64,000 nt of DNA from a virus. The notes below the pieces were generated by a model. That model saw only the letters and a list, made by a program, of their open reading frames with translations, was not told where the DNA came from and did no database searches. How positions within the stretch are numbered: position 1 is the stretch's first letter; every line of letters begins with the position of its first letter. Position numbers and translations under genes: made by a program. Of this stretch, positions 1 to 61,837 are shown one piece after another. The stretch is taken from positions 10,214 through 74,213 of IMG/VR virus record IMGVR_UViG_3300042870_001823. One strand, given 5' to 3'.

Positions 1-1454
1 CCTCTGCCTAAAGCATCGAAGTCATGAGCTAGTCTTGATAAGTTACTTGAGTGTTGTGATTGTATTTTATTAATTGAATTATCTAAAATAGTTTTAGAAT
101 CAGTTCCAGTAAGTCCCTTGAGCTTAAGTCTAGTGTGCTCTTGCTTTAAAGCTTCCGTTAAAGTATCTCGTTTATCTAGACTAAACTTTTTTGTTAGATT
201 ACCTAAAGCTTGTTCTCTTGATAGTTTTCCTGAGACGACATCATGTGCAACGCCTAGTGAATGGAACTGATTTTTGAAAGCCCTAAAGCCAGAAGACATT
301 CCTCTTACCCCAGGAAATGAATCTAATACTCCGTAGCCATCATCTGATTGAGCTACAAAAAAAGATTTAGCTTGTTCAGTTAATGTTTTTAGTTTTCCTG
401 CATTTACATCAGATGCTCTTCTAGATGCATCTTGTGCGCCGTGTCTAGCTGCTCTCCACGCTTGCAGAAATTCAGGCTGTGCATTATCTGCTTCTTGGAC
501 TCCAGCTGCAAAAGCTCCACTTGTTCTTGAAGAAAGTTTAATTCCTTTATTCAATACATCGGAAGCATCGTGACCGACTTCAGCAAGGAGTGACCTAAGG
601 TCAAATGCAAAAGAACTTGCTTTTTGTTTTATTGGACTTAAGGCACTTAAGTCATTCATTGAGTTAGCTAAAGTAGTTAATGAACTCTTCCCAGCAGCAC
701 CAGCAGCTCCTAACGCCTCAAATGGCAGGATCATAGTAGCTACGTTAATTGTTGAAGTCTTGACGAAATCAGTTAATACGTCTGCTGGGTTGTACCAGTT
801 AACTTTTTTCTTGTCTTGATTTTGTCCAAACAATGGTTCGGTAACAGCTTTTTGCGTTACGTACAACGCAGGTAGTTCGTACGGCATTCTCCTGCCTGCT
901 CGTACTAACTGCTTTTGAATTTGATCTCTAGTTAAGAATGCTTCGCTTGATTCGCTACTTAAGCCTGTTCCAGTACTCTTCTTGCCTTGTTCGCTAAGAG
1001 GTGCAAAGAATTTTCTAGCACTCCTTCTACCATCGTATCCAGTAGTTAATTTCCCATCAACTTTTTCAACTAGCCTAGAATAATCATCTACCCCACCAAT
1101 CTGGCGAGTTACTGATTCTAGTTCATCAAGACCTTGTCTAAGATCTAAAATTCCTTTTACTAGTCTGGTAGATGGCCTATCTAAATGGCCAGCTTTAATT
1201 GCTGCGTCTGAGGAATCTTGTAAAAACTTTCCTAGTTTTAATCCACCAGATTTAGTGACTCTAGATGCTACAGTAGTAACTACAATTGCAGTAGCTGCTG
1301 AACCCAAGAACTTCATCATTGGGTGGCCATCAAGGGCCTTTGCTATCCTGCCACTACCAGGACTTGGAGTTTCTGTTTCGCCCTCTTGCGAAGGTAGGTC
1401 ACGAGAAGATACGCCATATCCTATGTTATGTATTGGCCCTCTATCTCTGAACAC
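1..1454 (-). CDS. Probable tape measure protein, N-terminal part (runs off the window edge)
   Basis: GTG at 1454 with AGGAG RBS. The frame (MFRDRGPIHNIGYG...) appears open to position 1, which is why it is missing from the ORF track. Ala/Gly/Lys-rich and directly downstream of tube and chaperone genes. Confidence 0.6.
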   Translation of the reverse strand, partial: MFRDRGPIHNIGYGVSSRDLPSQEGETETPSPGSGRIAKALDGHPMMKFLGSAATAIVVTTVASRVTKSGGLKLGKFLQDSSDAAIKAGHLDRPSTRLVKGILDLRQGLDELESVTRQIGGVDDYSRLVEKVDGKLTTGYDGRRSARKFFAPLSEQGKKSTGTGLSSESSEAFLTRDQIQKQLVRAGRRMPYELPALYVTQKAVTEPLFGQNQDKKKVNWYNPADVLTDFVKTSTINVATMILPFEALGAAGAAGKSSLTTLANSMNDLSALSPIKQKASSFAFDLRSLLAEVGHDASDVLNKGIKLSSRTSGAFAAGVQEADNAQPEFLQAWRAARHGAQDASRRASDVNAGKLKTLTEQAKSFFVAQSDDGYGVLDSFPGVRGMSSGFRAFKNQFHSLGVAHDVVSGKLSREQALGNLTKKFSLDKRDTLTEALKQEHTRLKLKGLTGTDSKTILDNSINKIQSQHSSNLSRLAHDFDALGR

Positions 1455-6579: not shown

Positions 6580-6588
6580 TATAGTAAC
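6580..6588 (-). promoter_or_regulatory. Putative late promoter motif GTTACTATA
   Basis: The same motif recurs about 25-50 nt upstream of at least 8 minus-strand genes (see findings). Confidence 0.55.
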
Positions 6589-52384: not shown

Positions 52385-52429
52385 GGCCTCCTACAAATGT
52401 ATTATACAGTTATAGTAACCATTAAAGTA

Positions 52430-54642: not shown

Positions 54643-55638
54643 ATGTCAGACGATAAATCACTAGAATTAGCAATTGCCCAACTTGAAAGACAATTTGGAG
54701 CAGGTGCAGTAATGAGACTAGGGTCCAAGGATATCAAAGCTTGGCCCGCAGTTTCAACCGGAGCACTATCATTAGATATGATACTTGGAATTGGTGGACT
54801 TCCACTAGGTCGAGTAGTCGAAATCTATGGACCTGAATCCTCGGGCAAATCAACGATATCTTTATCAGTTGTGGCCCAAGCACAGAAGATGGGCCTTAAG
54901 TGCGCTTACATCGACGCTGAGCATGCTCTGGACCCAGTCTACATGGATGCCTTAGGCATTAATCTAGATGATCTCCTTCTTGCCCAGCCGGACTATGGCG
55001 AACAGGCATTAGAGATTGCAGATAGACTCATACGCACGGGCGAGGTCAATGTAGTTGTAATAGACTCAGTTGCAGCCCTTGTACCTAAAGCTGAGCTAGA
55101 AGGCGACATGGAAGCCAACCAGATGGGCCTACAAGCCCGTATGATGGCCAAGGGATTACGTAAGATAGTAGGTCTCGCCAATGAACACAAATGCCTAGTA
55201 ATCTTTATTAACCAGCTTAGATCTAAGATTGGTATCATGTTTGGTAATCCGGAAACAACTCCCGGAGGCAAAGCCTTGCCATACGCAGCATCAGTGCGAA
55301 TCGATGTGCGTAGAAAGGAAGATATTAAAGATAAGGCCGGCGAATCAATTGGTATCAAGGTAAAAGCCAAGATTATCAAGAACAAGATGGCTCCTCCTCT
55401 TAAGGTTACAGAATTTGACATCTATTACGGTAAGGGTGTCGATAACTACGGTTGCCTACTTGATGTGTGTATGTCTAAGGGAATCTTCTCACAACGTGGA
55501 GCTTGGGTCTATTACAATGGTGAATCATTCTCACAAGGTAGAGATAACGCTATTGACAAGATCAAAGCTGATCCAGAACTAGTATCAACGTTAGAAGGGC
55601 TGATCAAAGATGGCGTTCAAGCCGACCCCTTGTCCTGA
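54643..55638 (+). CDS. recA: Recombinase RecA
   Basis: GRVVEIYGPESSGKST, IDAEHALDP, DSVAALVPKAELEG, FINQLR, GNPETTPGG. Confidence 0.97.
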   Translation: MSDDKSLELAIAQLERQFGAGAVMRLGSKDIKAWPAVSTGALSLDMILGIGGLPLGRVVEIYGPESSGKSTISLSVVAQAQKMGLKCAYIDAEHALDPVYMDALGINLDDLLLAQPDYGEQALEIADRLIRTGEVNVVVIDSVAALVPKAELEGDMEANQMGLQARMMAKGLRKIVGLANEHKCLVIFINQLRSKIGIMFGNPETTPGGKALPYAASVRIDVRRKEDIKDKAGESIGIKVKAKIIKNKMAPPLKVTEFDIYYGKGVDNYGCLLDVCMSKGIFSQRGAWVYYNGESFSQGRDNAIDKIKADPELVSTLEGLIKDGVQADPLS

Positions 55639-57675: not shown

Positions 57676-58428
57676 ATGGCTGCAAATTATAGAAATGAGT
57701 TTTGTGTTCAGTGCCCAAAATTTGTTGAAGAGGGTCATGGCTTTCGCTTAACCCATGAAGGAGAATGGCGGACATTCTGTGCTACATGTGCAGTTGCTCG
57801 TCAGAAAAACAAAAACAAATCCGTATCAACGGCAGCCTATACAAATAGGCAACCAAAACTATTTACCGAGGAGGTAATAACAATGGACGCCAATCCAACA
57901 ACCAACCCTGAGGAGGGAATAATGAAAGCACCGTTTAAGGTGGGAGACAGAGTCAAGAGCATCAAGCATGATTATCTTGGCACAGTAAAGTGGGTTAAAT
58001 TTGAACCCAATGGAATAATGGTCAACAGAAAGAGGCGCGGTAGTCACAAGTGGGACTATGTCCAGAAAGTAGAAAAGGGAGGATACACAGTAACAGTTAA
58101 CTGGGATTCAACTCCAATTTGTCGACTTCACGCAATGCAAAACGCAAAAGTCCTTGAACTAGTTGTATCAGAACCACAACCAACCAACCCTGAGGAGGGA
58201 AACAAAATGGAAACAAAAGAAACTTTGTTCACCATGACAGAAAAGCAGATTGCGTATATACGTGATTTGTTTAAGTCAAAGAAGCAATTCATGACTATTG
58301 ATGAGCAGGAATCTCTTATCAATAAGATGACGGGTCATATCAATGGCTCAGCTGTATTAACAACCAAGTGGGCATCTGCAGCTATCACTAAGCTTCAGTC
58401 CTACAACACAGAAAGGAGTGCATCATGA
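57676..58428 (+). CDS. Modular early protein (Zn finger + SH3/KOW-like + helical) with internal starts
   Basis: CVQC...CATC and FKVGDRVK. Internal SD-ATG at 57883, 57922 and 58207. Confidence 0.6.
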   Translation: MAANYRNEFCVQCPKFVEEGHGFRLTHEGEWRTFCATCAVARQKNKNKSVSTAAYTNRQPKLFTEEVITMDANPTTNPEEGIMKAPFKVGDRVKSIKHDYLGTVKWVKFEPNGIMVNRKRRGSHKWDYVQKVEKGGYTVTVNWDSTPICRLHAMQNAKVLELVVSEPQPTNPEEGNKMETKETLFTMTEKQIAYIRDLFKSKKQFMTIDEQESLINKMTGHINGSAVLTTKWASAAITKLQSYNTERSAS

Positions 58429-61139
58429 AGATGTACCAAGTAACCGATCACTCTACCGGAGAGATCTTTGACATCGAGGCAGAATCTGCTTCTATTGCTG
58501 GACAGGCTTTCCTTATGGAAGGTCGGTCCGTAACCATTAAACCTATCAACGATAACCAGGAGGTAATCGCAATGGACACCAACCCGGTGAACAAAACAAC
58601 CAACCCTAAGGAGGGAACAAATATGATCAAGGAATACCTTGTTCGACTAAACCACGTGTACACCCGTGTCATTACAAATGATCCAGTGTATGCATTCGGT
58701 GATGACAAATCTGTTGTCATTGAAGAGACCAAGCCAGGTGGATATCATTGGTTCATGCTGGAGCACATGTTTGGTAAACAATCATTTGCAGTTGACATCA
58801 CCTCATTTGTAAATCCATATGGAGATACGCAATCTGGTGTTCTTGACCGTGGTAACAACAAACCTGAAGACATCATCTTTGGATGGGCAGACTTTGATGC
58901 GGAGTACATGATTCGTGTTAAAGGACACAAGTCAACTTTGTTTTCAGATCTGTCTGAGTATGGATTGTCTGTAGGCAACTCAGCTAAGATGACAAAGCGT
59001 CTCACCGAAATCATTCGTGCAGCACGTGGTGGCATGGTAAACATCAAGCGTCAACATAAGATGGCTCGTATCTTGGTACTCAGTCATTATGACATCTTGG
59101 ACTTCTTTGCCCATTTGGGTACAGAAGATGTTGCAGGTAAAGCTTTTGACGGTATTAGTCTCATTACAGATGACTATGCCAAGAAGGTATATCGTGCCAA
59201 CAAGCATTTGCCAGGTAAAGCAAAGTATCACACACTCAAGGGCATGGAAGATCGCAAGGTCACCAACCATACCATTCGTGTAGTTACTTGCATCAATGGT
59301 CAACCAGGTATGGTAAAGGGTAACGCCTTGTCTGTACCAATGGATGCATTGCTTGCTCGCCTGCGTGAGCGTGGAATAATCTCATCTACTCAGGTAGTTG
59401 ACATTGTTACATCGGTAGACAACTTCAAGACAGAACTTGGTACAGATGGATCTTGGGAGATCATTACTCTCGAGCCACATCATGGTCCAGGTATGGTAAA
59501 GACTAATGATCAGACTCTTGCACAGTTTTGGAACATCGAAGGTATCTTTGAACCCAAGGCTCTGTTGACTGAGTTTAAGTCTGTCCTTGATAATGCTTAC
59601 AACAATCTTGTTGAAGGTAAAGACATTCAGTGGATGCAGAACATCGTAGCTGAGCGGATTACCAATGAGACTGAGAAGTTTGCTTCCATCACCGGAGGTA
59701 AGGTAACCAGTAACATGAACAAGATGATTGCTAGCTTGCATGAGCTCGGATTGGATATTGGGGTCAGCCAGACTCTCATGTTCATGCGTGCGCAGGGTAT
59801 CAAGAAGATGTTCCTTTCGGACAACAAGAAGGATGGCTTTAACTGGCAAGCAAATGCTCGTGAGAAGAAGTCCTTTGTATTCATGCCATACGCATACCGT
59901 GCATATGTAATGACCAAGGAAGTATTGTGGCTTGCCGGCTATGACATTGACTTGAATGACAAGGAATCCTTCTACCATGAAGAAACTCAGACATTCTGTG
60001 TACCAGGAGTAACTTGGGCTAATATCCAGGGTAAACTTGGTGGCGCAGACTTGGATGATGAAATCATGGTTCATGAGCGTCGTTACGTTCGTCCAGATGG
60101 AACAGTCAACCCACTAGTAGCCTTCCTTGTTCGTACTCCGAATGATTGGGCAGAGTTTGCTCTCTTGCCTTTGGCTCAGCCTGGTCCAGCATTCTTGACT
60201 GATGGTGACATGCCAACTATCCACGCTAAGGATCTTGCTAAGTTCAAGCAGGTTTCTGTGGCTGGTGAATTGCCATCCAAGACAATTGGCTCAGACCGTC
60301 CTGGTTCTCCAGTATGGGATTGGGATTGCACTAGGTACAACCACGCAGCATCATCACTCAAGAGTGGTGGAGTTGGTGGACAAGTCAAGACCAAGATGCT
60401 TCAATACGGTATCAACAATGCTCCGTTTACCAATCTTCCTTGTGCAAATGAGGACATGATTGATGCACTACAGCAGTGTAAGGGTACAGCAGCTGATCTC
60501 CAAGTATTAGCAGAATGGTCTGTAGAGGCCACAATGCAAGTGCTTCAGTCTCAGCCAATGGACTCTTACTGGTGGTATAGCCGTAAAATGTATGGTACAA
60601 CCATCGCATTGAAGAAGCTTGGCCTTACCTGGTACCATAAGCCTGTATCAGCAGAGAAGTCACCTATTGTCCAAGACATGATGATCCCTCGTGAAGAGAT
60701 GGTCCGTGAAACACATCAAGAAATGATCAACTTCTTGAACCGTAACATCATGGAAATCCCTGAACTGGAGAACATCTTCAAGGACAAGAAGCAAGAAATG
60801 CACTACCGTAAGCTAGTTACTGACATCAGCAAGATGTTTACAGTACCTAAGCTGCATGACAAGCATGGCAACCTACTTCCTGCAACTAAGCATGATGTAG
60901 CTAACCATATGCAGAAAGTGGCTGGTTCGCTGCTTGAGCGTATGGCTGACTATCAGTTCCGTGCAGGTAGTGAGCAAACCAATCTGCATATCCTGCGGAT
61001 GGTTCGTGCTTCCTACCTTGTCAAGCAGGGTTATCCAGGTGCAAACTATGACCGTTGGTTGTATACCGCAGCTAATGACTCAGACGTCATCATGACCGAT
61101 TACTTTGTGCGGGCCTTGAACTGGTTCCGTACCAAGTAA
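58425..61139 (+). CDS. Putative single-chain two-barrel RNA polymerase (YonO/cellular RdRP-like), divergent
   Basis: FDGISLI, HTIR...GMVKG, LGGADLDDE and LVRTPN motifs resemble RdRP/YonO DGxG, FQxR..KG, GGDxDGD and RxP. Confidence 0.6.
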   Translation: MKMYQVTDHSTGEIFDIEAESASIAGQAFLMEGRSVTIKPINDNQEVIAMDTNPVNKTTNPKEGTNMIKEYLVRLNHVYTRVITNDPVYAFGDDKSVVIEETKPGGYHWFMLEHMFGKQSFAVDITSFVNPYGDTQSGVLDRGNNKPEDIIFGWADFDAEYMIRVKGHKSTLFSDLSEYGLSVGNSAKMTKRLTEIIRAARGGMVNIKRQHKMARILVLSHYDILDFFAHLGTEDVAGKAFDGISLITDDYAKKVYRANKHLPGKAKYHTLKGMEDRKVTNHTIRVVTCINGQPGMVKGNALSVPMDALLARLRERGIISSTQVVDIVTSVDNFKTELGTDGSWEIITLEPHHGPGMVKTNDQTLAQFWNIEGIFEPKALLTEFKSVLDNAYNNLVEGKDIQWMQNIVAERITNETEKFASITGGKVTSNMNKMIASLHELGLDIGVSQTLMFMRAQGIKKMFLSDNKKDGFNWQANAREKKSFVFMPYAYRAYVMTKEVLWLAGYDIDLNDKESFYHEETQTFCVPGVTWANIQGKLGGADLDDEIMVHERRYVRPDGTVNPLVAFLVRTPNDWAEFALLPLAQPGPAFLTDGDMPTIHAKDLAKFKQVSVAGELPSKTIGSDRPGSPVWDWDCTRYNHAASSLKSGGVGGQVKTKMLQYGINNAPFTNLPCANEDMIDALQQCKGTAADLQVLAEWSVEATMQVLQSQPMDSYWWYSRKMYGTTIALKKLGLTWYHKPVSAEKSPIVQDMMIPREEMVRETHQEMINFLNRNIMEIPELENIFKDKKQEMHYRKLVTDISKMFTVPKLHDKHGNLLPATKHDVANHMQKVAGSLLERMADYQFRAGSEQTNLHILRMVRASYLVKQGYPGANYDRWLYTAANDSDVIMTDYFVRALNWFRTK

Positions 61140-61247
61140 TAAATAGCTCTCATTCTAAAAAGGGATGTGAGTTTTGAATAGTACATCAGGCTAGGCTCCA
61201 GCGCTGTCACAAGTAAAGGGGTCTAGTCTGATCGTATTCTAAAGTCT

Positions 61248-61316
61248 TTTGTTAGTAAATCCGCTAACAAAGTAAAGGGGAAAGTCCCCACAACAACTTA
61301 CCTTAGGAGGTAAACA
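61248..61316 (+). promoter_or_regulatory. Repeated hairpin-promoter/leader element, copy 1
   Basis: GTTAGTAAATCCGCTAAC-AAAGTAAAGGGG...TTACCTTAGGAGGTAA, near-identical to 61769-61837. Confidence 0.7.
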
Positions 61317-61730
61317 ATGTCCACAATACTCAACTTCTGGCTAAACACCAGCCCAACCAAGCCAACCGTCTGGCTCGTCGACAAGTCTGGTCTTCTCAAA
61401 GGCTCAGTCTTTGTGAACCTCGAGTCTACACAGGCTCGTGACGACCTCGTTGCCCATCTGCGGTTGGCCTATGACAAAGGCGTCTCGTATGAGTTGGCTG
61501 TCGATGTGAAAAACATTGACACAACCAAGCCAACAGCGATGAAAATCAAGCTTGACCTTGACACTGTCATCAGCAACAAGATTGAGACAGTTAAAGCTGA
61601 GCCAAAGCCTGTAGACCGTAAAGTCATGGCTAAGCTTGAAGCACTCAATGCTAAATTGTCTGCTTTGCCTTCAGTAGAGCGTGTTGTTGTTGGTGGCTCG
61701 ACCACTGACGACGACATCCTAGCGTTCTAG
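61317..61730 (+). CDS. Hypothetical early protein
   Basis: Strong AGGAGG RBS. Acidic C-terminus DDDILAF resembles an SSB tail. Confidence 0.7.
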   Translation: MSTILNFWLNTSPTKPTVWLVDKSGLLKGSVFVNLESTQARDDLVAHLRLAYDKGVSYELAVDVKNIDTTKPTAMKIKLDLDTVISNKIETVKAEPKPVDRKVMAKLEALNAKLSALPSVERVVVGGSTTDDDILAF

Positions 61731-61768
61731 GCTGCGACCTGAGCAAGTCTGTAAACTGCTCCCCATCG

Positions 61769-61837
61769 TGGTTAGTAAATCCGCTAACCAAGTAAAGGGG
61801 ATAGTCTCCCTACAACATTACCTAGGAGGTAATTCAC
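61769..61837 (+). promoter_or_regulatory. Repeated hairpin-promoter/leader element, copy 2
   Basis: GTTAGTAAATCCGCTAAC-CAAGTAAAGGGG...TTACCTAGGAGGTAA. Confidence 0.7.

Follow-up and report, generated by a model that had tools for sequence, protein, structure and literature searches.

The 64,000-nt window analysed here (positions 10,214-74,213 of the IMG/VR record IMGVR_UViG_3300042870_001823) belongs to a 74-kb fragment, 35% complete, of an uncultured contractile-tailed phage (G000), which is repeatedly contained in lake-water metagenomes from 2016-2025. The gene content of the fragment includes sheath, portal, large terminase and capsid genes, many 2OG-Fe(II) oxygenases, recA (54643-55638) and a ClpB-like gene. 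The subject of this analysis is a gene placed 2.8 kb downstream of recA, whose product is predicted to be a single-chain RNA polymerase (RNAP) built around two double-psi beta-barrels (DPBBs), with an active site departing from the common pattern. Comparisons were made with a 155-kb relative (G001) and a complete relative (G005) of this phage. Statements attributed below to PMC2919709, PMC5467207, PMC9508822, the census in PMC10770324 and the preprint on the crAss-like phage RNAP refer to excerpts of these sources. The following features were distinguished within the gene (window coordinates; aa, amino acids; boundaries of the structural parts taken from the predicted fold):

58425..61139, + strand: polymerase open reading frame (ORF; P0001), ATG start, 904 aa
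58425..58622, + strand: N-terminal 66-aa module with linker; the module also opens short separate proteins and longer fused relatives
58602..58615, + strand: translated Shine-Dalgarno linker AACCCTAAGGAGGG, read as NPKEG, 7 nt before the ATG at 58623
58623..61136, + strand: polymerase core M67-K904, 838 aa, the unit that was modelled
59040..59492, + strand: predicted first barrel DPBB-B (beta-like), aa 206-356, with D242-G243, R285, K298-G299 and N333-x-K335-x-E337
59493..59864, + strand: predicted all-helical connector, aa 357-480, with no strands according to DSSP
59865..60089, + strand: predicted catalytic barrel DPBB-A (beta'-like), aa 481-555, ending with a helix, GGADLDDE and the catalytic strand
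60048..60059, + strand: Asp triad D542-L-D544-D545 (D-x-D-D)
60090..60302, + strand: predicted added beta-hairpin and small beta/alpha unit, aa 556-626, with R570-T-P572...E577 (strands at core residues 480-489, 495-503 and 512-517)
60303..61136, + strand: C-terminal, mainly helical part, aligned at the level of ranges with the bridge helix, trigger loop and head of QDE-1

The ORF and the four motifs quoted for it in the initial annotation were all located: FDGISLI (aa 241-247; nt 59145-59165, + strand), TIRVV at aa 283 with GMVKG at aa 295-299, LGGADLDDEI (aa 538-547; nt 60036-60065, + strand) and LVRTPND (aa 568-574; nt 60126-60146, + strand). The polymerase ATG overlaps the stop codon of an upstream 250-aa ORF (57676-58428) as ATGA and is preceded by AAAGGAG. 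The 904-aa ORF is composed of two modules, a 66-aa N-terminal piece terminating in ...TNPKEGTN and an 838-aa core starting at M67 (nt 58623). Three short proteins (P0058, P0079 and P0088) match polymerase residues 1-76, 1-67 and 1-59 alone, respectively, while the core-only proteins are distant relatives of 789-824 aa, and one representative relative begins precisely at the equivalent of M67. To judge from the sequence, the ATG at 58623 behind AACCCTAAGGAGGG is a likely internal start for the core.

The linker sequence belongs to a 14-mer class, AACCCT(G/A)AGGAGGG, present in 3 copies in the window vs 0.01 expected (57904-57917, 58186-58199 and 58602-58615, all on the + strand). Each copy lies in frame, is followed by an ATG and is read as NP(E/K)EG; those at 57904 and 58186 fall inside the upstream 250-aa ORF. 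At these joints whole modules are gained or dropped among relatives, and the joints of the fused relatives examined are of the same type. The NP(E/K)EG joints are apparently ribosome-binding sites translated as linkers between protein modules, and the upstream ORF and the polymerase ORF look like strings of formerly separate genes without stop codons. In other relatives, the modules found between the N-terminal piece and the core include a PIF1-type helicase, SLOG/DprA-like, DUF4326 and NADAR modules; Pfam recorded extra modules in 8 of 39 proteins from a search of 5.8 billion clusters and in 8 of 31 scanned proteins, drawn from 55 representative relatives. We infer that the 838-aa core is the functional unit and that the fusions are run-together neighbours. 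The 'polyvalent protein' idea was considered for the fused relatives and set aside, as the 2017 paper on it contains no DPBB, YonO, DUF4326, NADAR or Pif1. Three fused relatives (P0009, P0011 and P0036) carry a module of about 200 aa between the SLOG-like module and the core (approximately residues 360-560 of P0011), which has an H-x-D...H pattern (HRDTTYAAAW…KHVHAV), bears no Pfam name and resembles a 2OG-Fe(II)/AlkB-type dioxygenase.

No family of Pfam (hmmscan, E ≤ 10), PHROGs or NCBIfam matched the polymerase protein, and none of 50,697 phage records matched it by blastn or tblastn. Among PDB sequences phmmer found 0 matches and the family profile retrieved only noise (E ≥ 0.44); the ESM Atlas gave no usable match, and a scan of cellular genomes (one per prokaryotic species) with two peptide patterns revealed no relative. 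The search of 5.8 billion clusters yielded the 39 related proteins mentioned above, five of them named by source, each as 'hypothetical protein', and the 55 representatives were obtained among 1.84 billion entries at E ≤ 1e-3 (24 at E ≤ 1e-30). Two uncharacterised family members from uncultured Caudovirales are present in BFVD (template-modelling scores 0.82 and 0.69). The literature searched contained no account of the polymerase family or of a permuted RNAP barrel and no paper combining 'DxDD', 'RNA polymerase' and 'double-psi'; the family may still be one of the 23 RNAP families of PMC10770324. For the analyses below, 47 polymerase homologues, down to 17% identity, were aligned (alignment A1), 3 rows of which are fragments without the part corresponding to the first barrel.

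An AlphaFold2 model of the 838-aa core was generated from A1, with a mean predicted local distance difference test score (pLDDT) of 90.9 and a predicted template-modelling score of 0.84. Foldseek compared this model with the PDB and returned 17 matches at E ≤ 1e-3; among the matches listed, all are QDE-1, RDR2 or P74-26 gp62, and the next ones are P32 gp64 and crAss gp66. With VIA-align, the best superpositions were those with maize RDR2 (Z 10.4-11.5; 581-585 aligned residues), QDE-1 (Z 8.6-9.4; 597-625 residues, model 1..838 against chain 486..1339), gp62/gp64 (Z 9.2; 388-408 residues) and gp96 (Z 7.7; 318-324 residues); unrelated rows began at Z 5.0 in the PDB run and Z 6.7 in the wide search. 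The initial annotation had proposed a single-chain two-barrel RNAP and had named beforehand the result that would speak against it, a structure without two DPBBs. AlphaFold and Foldseek instead support two barrels, and the predicted fold matches QDE-1, RDR2, gp62/gp64, gp96 and gp66, with nothing else above noise. On the strength of the model, a two-barrel polymerase fold is very probable.

The layout of the core was examined with a model of a fragment (core residues 140-492; pLDDT 87.6), which ends just past the catalytic strand. Each barrel taken alone was matched by beta-type or beta'-type barrels and by generic DPBBs: fragment residues 1-147 match the beta subunit of Escherichia coli, the second-largest subunits of phiKZ, vaccinia virus and African swine fever virus, and generic DPBBs (Z 3.4-4.4), while fragment residues 280-353 match beta'-type and generic DPBBs. 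For comparison, the connector between the barrels comprises about 140 residues in QDE-1 and gp66 (crAss RNAP preprint). The C-terminal 350 residues of the core align as a range, not residue by residue, with the bridge helix/trigger loop part of QDE-1.

In A1 each Asp of the triad is present in 47/47 sequences, as are R570, P572 and E577; D242, G243, K298, N333, K335 and E337 are each kept in 44/44 and R285 in 43/43. The position of the canonical third Asp, 546, is occupied by E in 19, S in 18, T in 7, A in 2 and R in 1 of the 47. Conserved residues and annotation agree in part: of the 'DLDDE' active site described there, D542, D544 and D545 are invariant, whereas E546 is unconserved, being acidic in 19/47, and the family signature, as read from the aligned sequences, is GG-x-D-x-D-D. 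The loop had also been called non-canonical, and the alignment ends do put D-x-D-D at the site of DxDGD. In the fragment the triad is numbered D337, D339 and D340. Fragment residue 348 corresponds to QDE-1 1019, which places D542 at 1008, and fragment residues 350-352 correspond to QDE-1 1024-1026, which places it at 1011; both positions fall within the DYDGD loop 1007-1011 (PMC2919709). Fragment residue 353 corresponds to gp66 1378, which gives 1362 (DFDID 1361-1365; crAss RNAP preprint), and fragment residue 350 to gp62 341, which gives 328 (DYDGD 327-331 if numbered from M27). Because the alignments to these three unrelated solved enzymes concur, DLDD is probably the metal loop.

The beta-like barrel of two-barrel enzymes supplies a fourth Asp and two basic residues (D709, R738 and K743 in QDE-1; D837, K979 and K987 in Rpb2). 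In the phage protein, D242, R285 and K298 occur in the expected barrel and in the expected order (D, R, K), a placement made by range and not residue by residue; the first-barrel alignment begins at QDE-1 681-683, and D242 lies a few tens of residues in, like D709.

The initial annotation had further placed an R-x-P motif after the Asp motif, and this holds throughout the family: R570 lies 25 residues past D545, and R570-x-P572 is invariant (47/47). A canonical R-x-P, 33-45 residues before the triad, is absent; T497-K-E sits 45 residues before D542, and R492, the one Arg close to the canonical gate position, is kept in 25/47 rows of A1 and has no Pro at +2. According to DSSP, the strands at core residues 480-489 and 495-503 are linked by a 5-residue turn, RPDGT. 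Pairing within this hairpin would place R570 (core 504) opposite E546 (core 480), beside D545. In QDE-1 the gate is R962-x-P964, with R962 located 45 residues before D1007 (PMC2919709). Because the gate Arg of QDE-1 binds the 2'-OH of the incoming nucleoside triphosphate (NTP) and the P964A substitution cripples that enzyme (PMC9508822), the natural reading of the model is that R570-x-P572 would be a relocated gate.

A different origin of this arrangement, also put forward in the initial annotation, is a true circular permutation of the catalytic barrel: the Asp-loop half-barrel would come first, the beta-loop-beta-alpha-beta half with the R-T-P strand would follow through a beta6-to-beta1 hairpin, and new termini would lie at beta3/beta4. 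Several observations fit it. DSSP finds no strand in the 138 residues ahead of the catalytic unit in the full model (core 286-423), and the catalytic unit is immediately succeeded by another one resembling beta-beta-alpha-beta (core strands 495-503, 512-517 and 532-534, core helix 535-542 and core strand 546-547). The sequence LVRTPNDWAEF resembles the R-x-P strand-plus-loop FNRRPDLP of gp62, and the T497-D542 spacing of 45 residues equals that of R962-D1007 in QDE-1 (PMC2919709), a hint that the catalytic half-barrel alone precedes the loop. However, the fragment, which is devoid of the downstream unit, aligns colinearly with whole canonical barrels: its residues 280-353 run in sequence order across them, from the first strand, and thus cover more than one half-barrel. 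These matches have low Z values (3.3-3.8) and are defined by their range ends only; they comprise (i) a designed 86-aa DPBB (chain 4..89; 52 residues aligned, 2.3 A), (ii) NSF-N (chain 1..89; 60 residues, 2.7 A), (iii) E. coli beta' (chain 347..483; 58 residues, 2.7 A), (iv) Sulfolobus A' (chain 316..472; 59 residues, 3.1 A) and (v) human Pol I (chain 437..611; 58 residues, 2.6 A). Moreover, hhalign detects no similarity between the profiles of the catalytic and downstream units (E 0.07-0.28). A permuted barrel is thus unlikely, though it would be the best of the alternatives considered here, and the more economical reading of the models is a colinear, compacted barrel in which the normal R-x-P was lost and a replacement arose on an added hairpin.

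The predicted enzyme was compared with those of known structure. QDE-1 of Neurospora and plant RDR2 are cellular single-chain two-barrel RNAPs (PDB 2J7N, 7Y7P-T, 7W82/7W84, 7EU0/1). The phage protein shares with them the end-to-end chain architecture, the order of barrel B, helical connector and barrel A, and the site of the Asp loop. It differs from them in its sequence (8-15% identity, no sequence-level match), in its phage setting as opposed to eukaryotic RNA silencing, in its D-x-D-D loop vs D-Y/L-D-G-D, and in having R-x-P 25 residues after the loop instead of 45 before it.

Thermus phages encode two kinds of such enzymes, non-virion RNAPs (P23-45 gp64, P74-26 gp62 and P32 gp64) and the tape-measure-fused virion RNAP gp96 (PDB 8F5M, 8F72, 8H2M/N; Nat Commun 2024, PMC10770324). 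Like gp62/gp64, the protein described here is a compact phage single-chain two-barrel enzyme (root-mean-square deviation of 4.7-5.1 A over the aligned residues at Z 9.2), and, as in P23-45, there are two distant paralogues per phage, one of them in the tail module. Unlike it, gp62 keeps the canonical order, with NRRP followed after 37 residues by GADYDGD. The family profile compared with one gp62 sequence (hhalign) gave a probability of 0.58% and E 0.1 over an unrelated stretch, a single sequence being a weak test. The virion RNAP gp66 of phi14:2, a crAss-like phage (PDB 6VR4), has the same fold (Z 4.9-5.8), likewise lacks Gly at loop position 4 (DFDID) and is described in the preprint as QDE-1-like, with a connector; it differs from the polymerase studied here in its length of 2180 residues, in its established presence in the virion and in a metal loop that retains the D-x-D-x-D spacing. 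YonO of the Bacillus prophage SPbeta is also a single-chain two-barrel phage RNAP of about 100 kDa and a distant relative of RNA-dependent RNA polymerases (RdRPs) (PMC5467207, PMC2919709). It was compared by description only, the PDB structure searches having returned no YonO entry; according to PMC2919709, the eight invariant residues, with R-x-P among them, are all shared by YonO-like proteins.

The source phage encodes a second, longer putative polymerase, the 1604-aa paralogue P0090 (G000:C1:206-5017, or L016:209-5017; - strand), about 5.2 kb before the first base of the window. Its counterpart in G001, found by a motif scan, is a 1599-aa ORF (G001:C1:78744-83543; - strand) placed between baseplate and sheath genes; two giant ORFs neighbouring it (3466 and 2214 aa) were considered as polymerase relatives and proved unrelated on comparison. 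The long paralogues bear the signature GTFDLDD...FRQPTGPAEY in G001 and GTFDLDD...FRQPTGPGEY in P0090. A profile of 23 homologues of the 1604-aa paralogue (alignment A4) matched A1 with a probability of 97.2% (hhalign; E 3.6e-11, 324 columns) and with the signature motifs in register, and D689, D691, D692, R721-Q-P723 and E728 of P0090 are invariant in A4. Unlike the tape-measure-fused gp96, the tail paralogue is a separate gene.

Both polymerase genes are present in G000, in G001 and in 4/4 relatives that are 96-100% complete; these near-complete relatives (202-210 kb, three with terminal repeats) were reached via a subfamily of 28% identity. In two small fragments, of 23% and 30% completeness, the long paralogue is missing. 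A search for a beta' domain was negative in 5/5 records, four of them 96-100% complete, with a control positive in 14/14 genomes, and the same records contained no sigma-70 region 2 (control positive in 10/14). In G001, genes for a Pol III alpha of the DnaE type and for a DnaB-like helicase stand in one row with that of an HD-domain protein (G001:C1:20798-28650; L008); between the Pol III alpha and helicase genes, the row also contains a primase-like gene recognised by PHROG only (phrog_16345, E 1.8e-24). An HNH/homing-endonuclease-like ORF adjoins the DnaB-like helicase gene, and Toprim_2 was found in none of 4 records.

The region downstream of the polymerase gene contains a repeated element of about 30 nt, composed of an inverted repeat GTTAG...CTAAC, then AAGTAAAGGGG and then a short G/C hairpin. 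Its copies are as follows:

61251..61303, + strand: promoter-like repeat GTTAGTAAATCCGCTAAC(A/C)AAGTAAAGGGG with short G/C hairpin, lying about 35-50 nt ahead of the ATG that starts a 137-aa ORF
61771-61823 and 62355-62371, + strand: further copies of the repeat
61211-61220, 62197-62206 and 63383-63399, + strand: core copies of the repeat

The sequence AAGTAAAGGG occurs in 4 exact copies, all on the + strand, within 61211-62206. The long-form repeats precede the start codons of small ORFs by 35-50 nt, and strong ribosome-binding sites are present. The 17-mer is found in 3-4 copies per record in 4 records, always in forward orientation and within approximately 1.5 kb downstream of the polymerase gene; three relatives have it at the equivalent place, and a reversed control gave none. 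At the sequence level, the repeat is a real, conserved, local and strand-specific element, presumably regulatory. Further copies may exist beyond the contig ends, because all four contigs stop 3-6 kb past the polymerase gene. Rfam gave no match in 61100-64000. A terminator-like hairpin of 17 pairs with a T-rich tail (62078-62115, + strand) follows a 61-aa ORF and closes the first two motif-led small genes. Of other words, GTTACTATA is not enriched in the window (26 matches with at most 1 mismatch vs 20.4 expected), its exact copies lying at 6580-6588, 47429-47437 and 52411-52419, all on the - strand, which is that of the structural genes, while G005 shows a mild excess of TTACTATA upstream of its ORFs (7 observed vs 1.4 expected).

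These data are best explained by a gene for an active single-chain two-barrel RNAP of QDE-1/RDR and phage gp62/gp64 architecture that forms the non-virion partner of a pair, a reading which, resting in part on structural models, we consider somewhat favoured. Of its components, that the product is an active RNAP is likely, and that it transcribes phage genes as one of a pair with the tail-module paralogue is a little better supported than not. In the proposed mechanism, two Mg2+ ions would be bound by D542, D544 and D545 together with D242, as other two-barrel enzymes bind them, except that loop position 4 and not position 5 would provide the third ligand. The Arg-Pro gate, normally carried by the strand before the loop, where it reads the 2'-OH of the NTP, would be supplied by R570-x-P572 after the loop, on a strand hairpinned to the catalytic strand and hence next to D545. 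The 904-aa enzyme would act outside the virion, whereas the 1604-aa product of the tail-module gene, a candidate virion-packaged RNAP, may be packaged, and the pair would carry out phage transcription almost or wholly without host RNAP, as gp96 and gp64 do in P23-45. The AAGTAAAGGGG elements before the small downstream genes are promoter candidates for one or other of the polymerases.

Several points weigh against this explanation. With respect to the active site, the R and P of R-x-P, two of the eight 'invariant' two-barrel residues, are missing from their usual place, and the loop spacing is unprecedented among the two-barrel enzymes of the sources consulted, deviations that could alter activity or sugar specificity. 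The nearness of R570 to the Asp loop was deduced from the hairpin register given by DSSP, not measured, and the loop equivalences were read from the ends of alignment ranges, with the last 11-16 residues assumed to be ungapped and the QDE-1 rows 3 residues apart. As for the division of labour, the virion assignment of the paralogue derives from gene position only; G001 has a weak sigma-like PHROG match (E 5e-5), so some use of the host polymerase is possible; and the absence of a T7-type RNAP from the five records comes from a search without a positive control. The repeat has too few sites for a general promoter, the 17-mer being absent from the remaining ~150 kb of the 155-kb G001, and a k-mer enrichment analysis upstream of 237 ORFs of G005 revealed no common word, only ribosome-binding-like or AT-rich ones.

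A role other than gene transcription, namely that the enzyme makes RNA on single-stranded DNA in the service of replication or recombination, in a primase-like or helicase-coupled way, is improbable. It is suggested by the core being fused behind a PIF1-type helicase in 3/39 proteins and in 5/31 scanned representatives (of 55; other relatives carry SLOG/DprA-like, DUF4326 or NADAR modules), by the vicinity of recA and by the use of single-stranded DNA templates by the nearest solved relatives, QDE-1 (PMC9508822) and gp66 (preprint). On the other hand, G001 already has a primase-like gene, the fusions may be run-together neighbours without functional meaning because their linkers encode ribosome-binding sites, and a second paralogue among tail genes fits transcription better than priming. 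An RdRP that makes double-stranded RNA or copies phage or host RNA is very improbable: RDR2 and QDE-1 are indeed the best structural matches, but the tested members of the phage clade (gp66, gp64, gp96 and YonO) are DNA-dependent in the excerpts cited, and the eukaryotic-type RdRP profile PF05183 gave no Pfam match at E ≤ 10. Least credible of all is a protein that is catalytically dead or polymerises something other than RNA (DNA, like PolD), which the lack of R-x-P, the contact to the 2'-OH in QDE-1 (PMC9508822), from its usual place and a weak match to PolD DP2 (Z 4.0) might suggest, since all candidate catalytic residues are invariant over 47 sequences, PolD scores far under the RNAPs and G001 has its own Pol III alpha.

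As far as the literature searched shows, two paralogous sequence families are new here; the kind of enzyme to which they belong is known, and both share a conserved, rewired active site. We tentatively propose, as a possibility short of an even chance, that a clade of ~200-kb freshwater phages transcribes its genes via two paralogous two-barrel RNAPs with a D-x-D-D loop and a gate moved to the hairpin after the loop. According to the cited excerpt of a survey from 2010, eight active-site residues, among them the gate R and P and D-x-D-x-D, are invariant in all two-barrel polymerases (PMC2919709), and a census of viruses with two RNAPs was filtered on [RK]xPx{20,100}DxDxD (PMC10770324, Supplementary Data 4). 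This filter would miss the clade, whose catalytic site misfits the pattern: 2/47 rows of A1 match it, via DHDID and DVDAD and not via the D-x-D-D loop, and 0/23 in A4. The 838-aa enzyme is small, should be easily expressed and would be suited to probing the role of the gate loop. The clade breaks both rules, that of the gate site and that of D-x-D-x-D, yet its candidate catalytic residues stay invariant, and it would thus show how far an ancient active site can be rebuilt.

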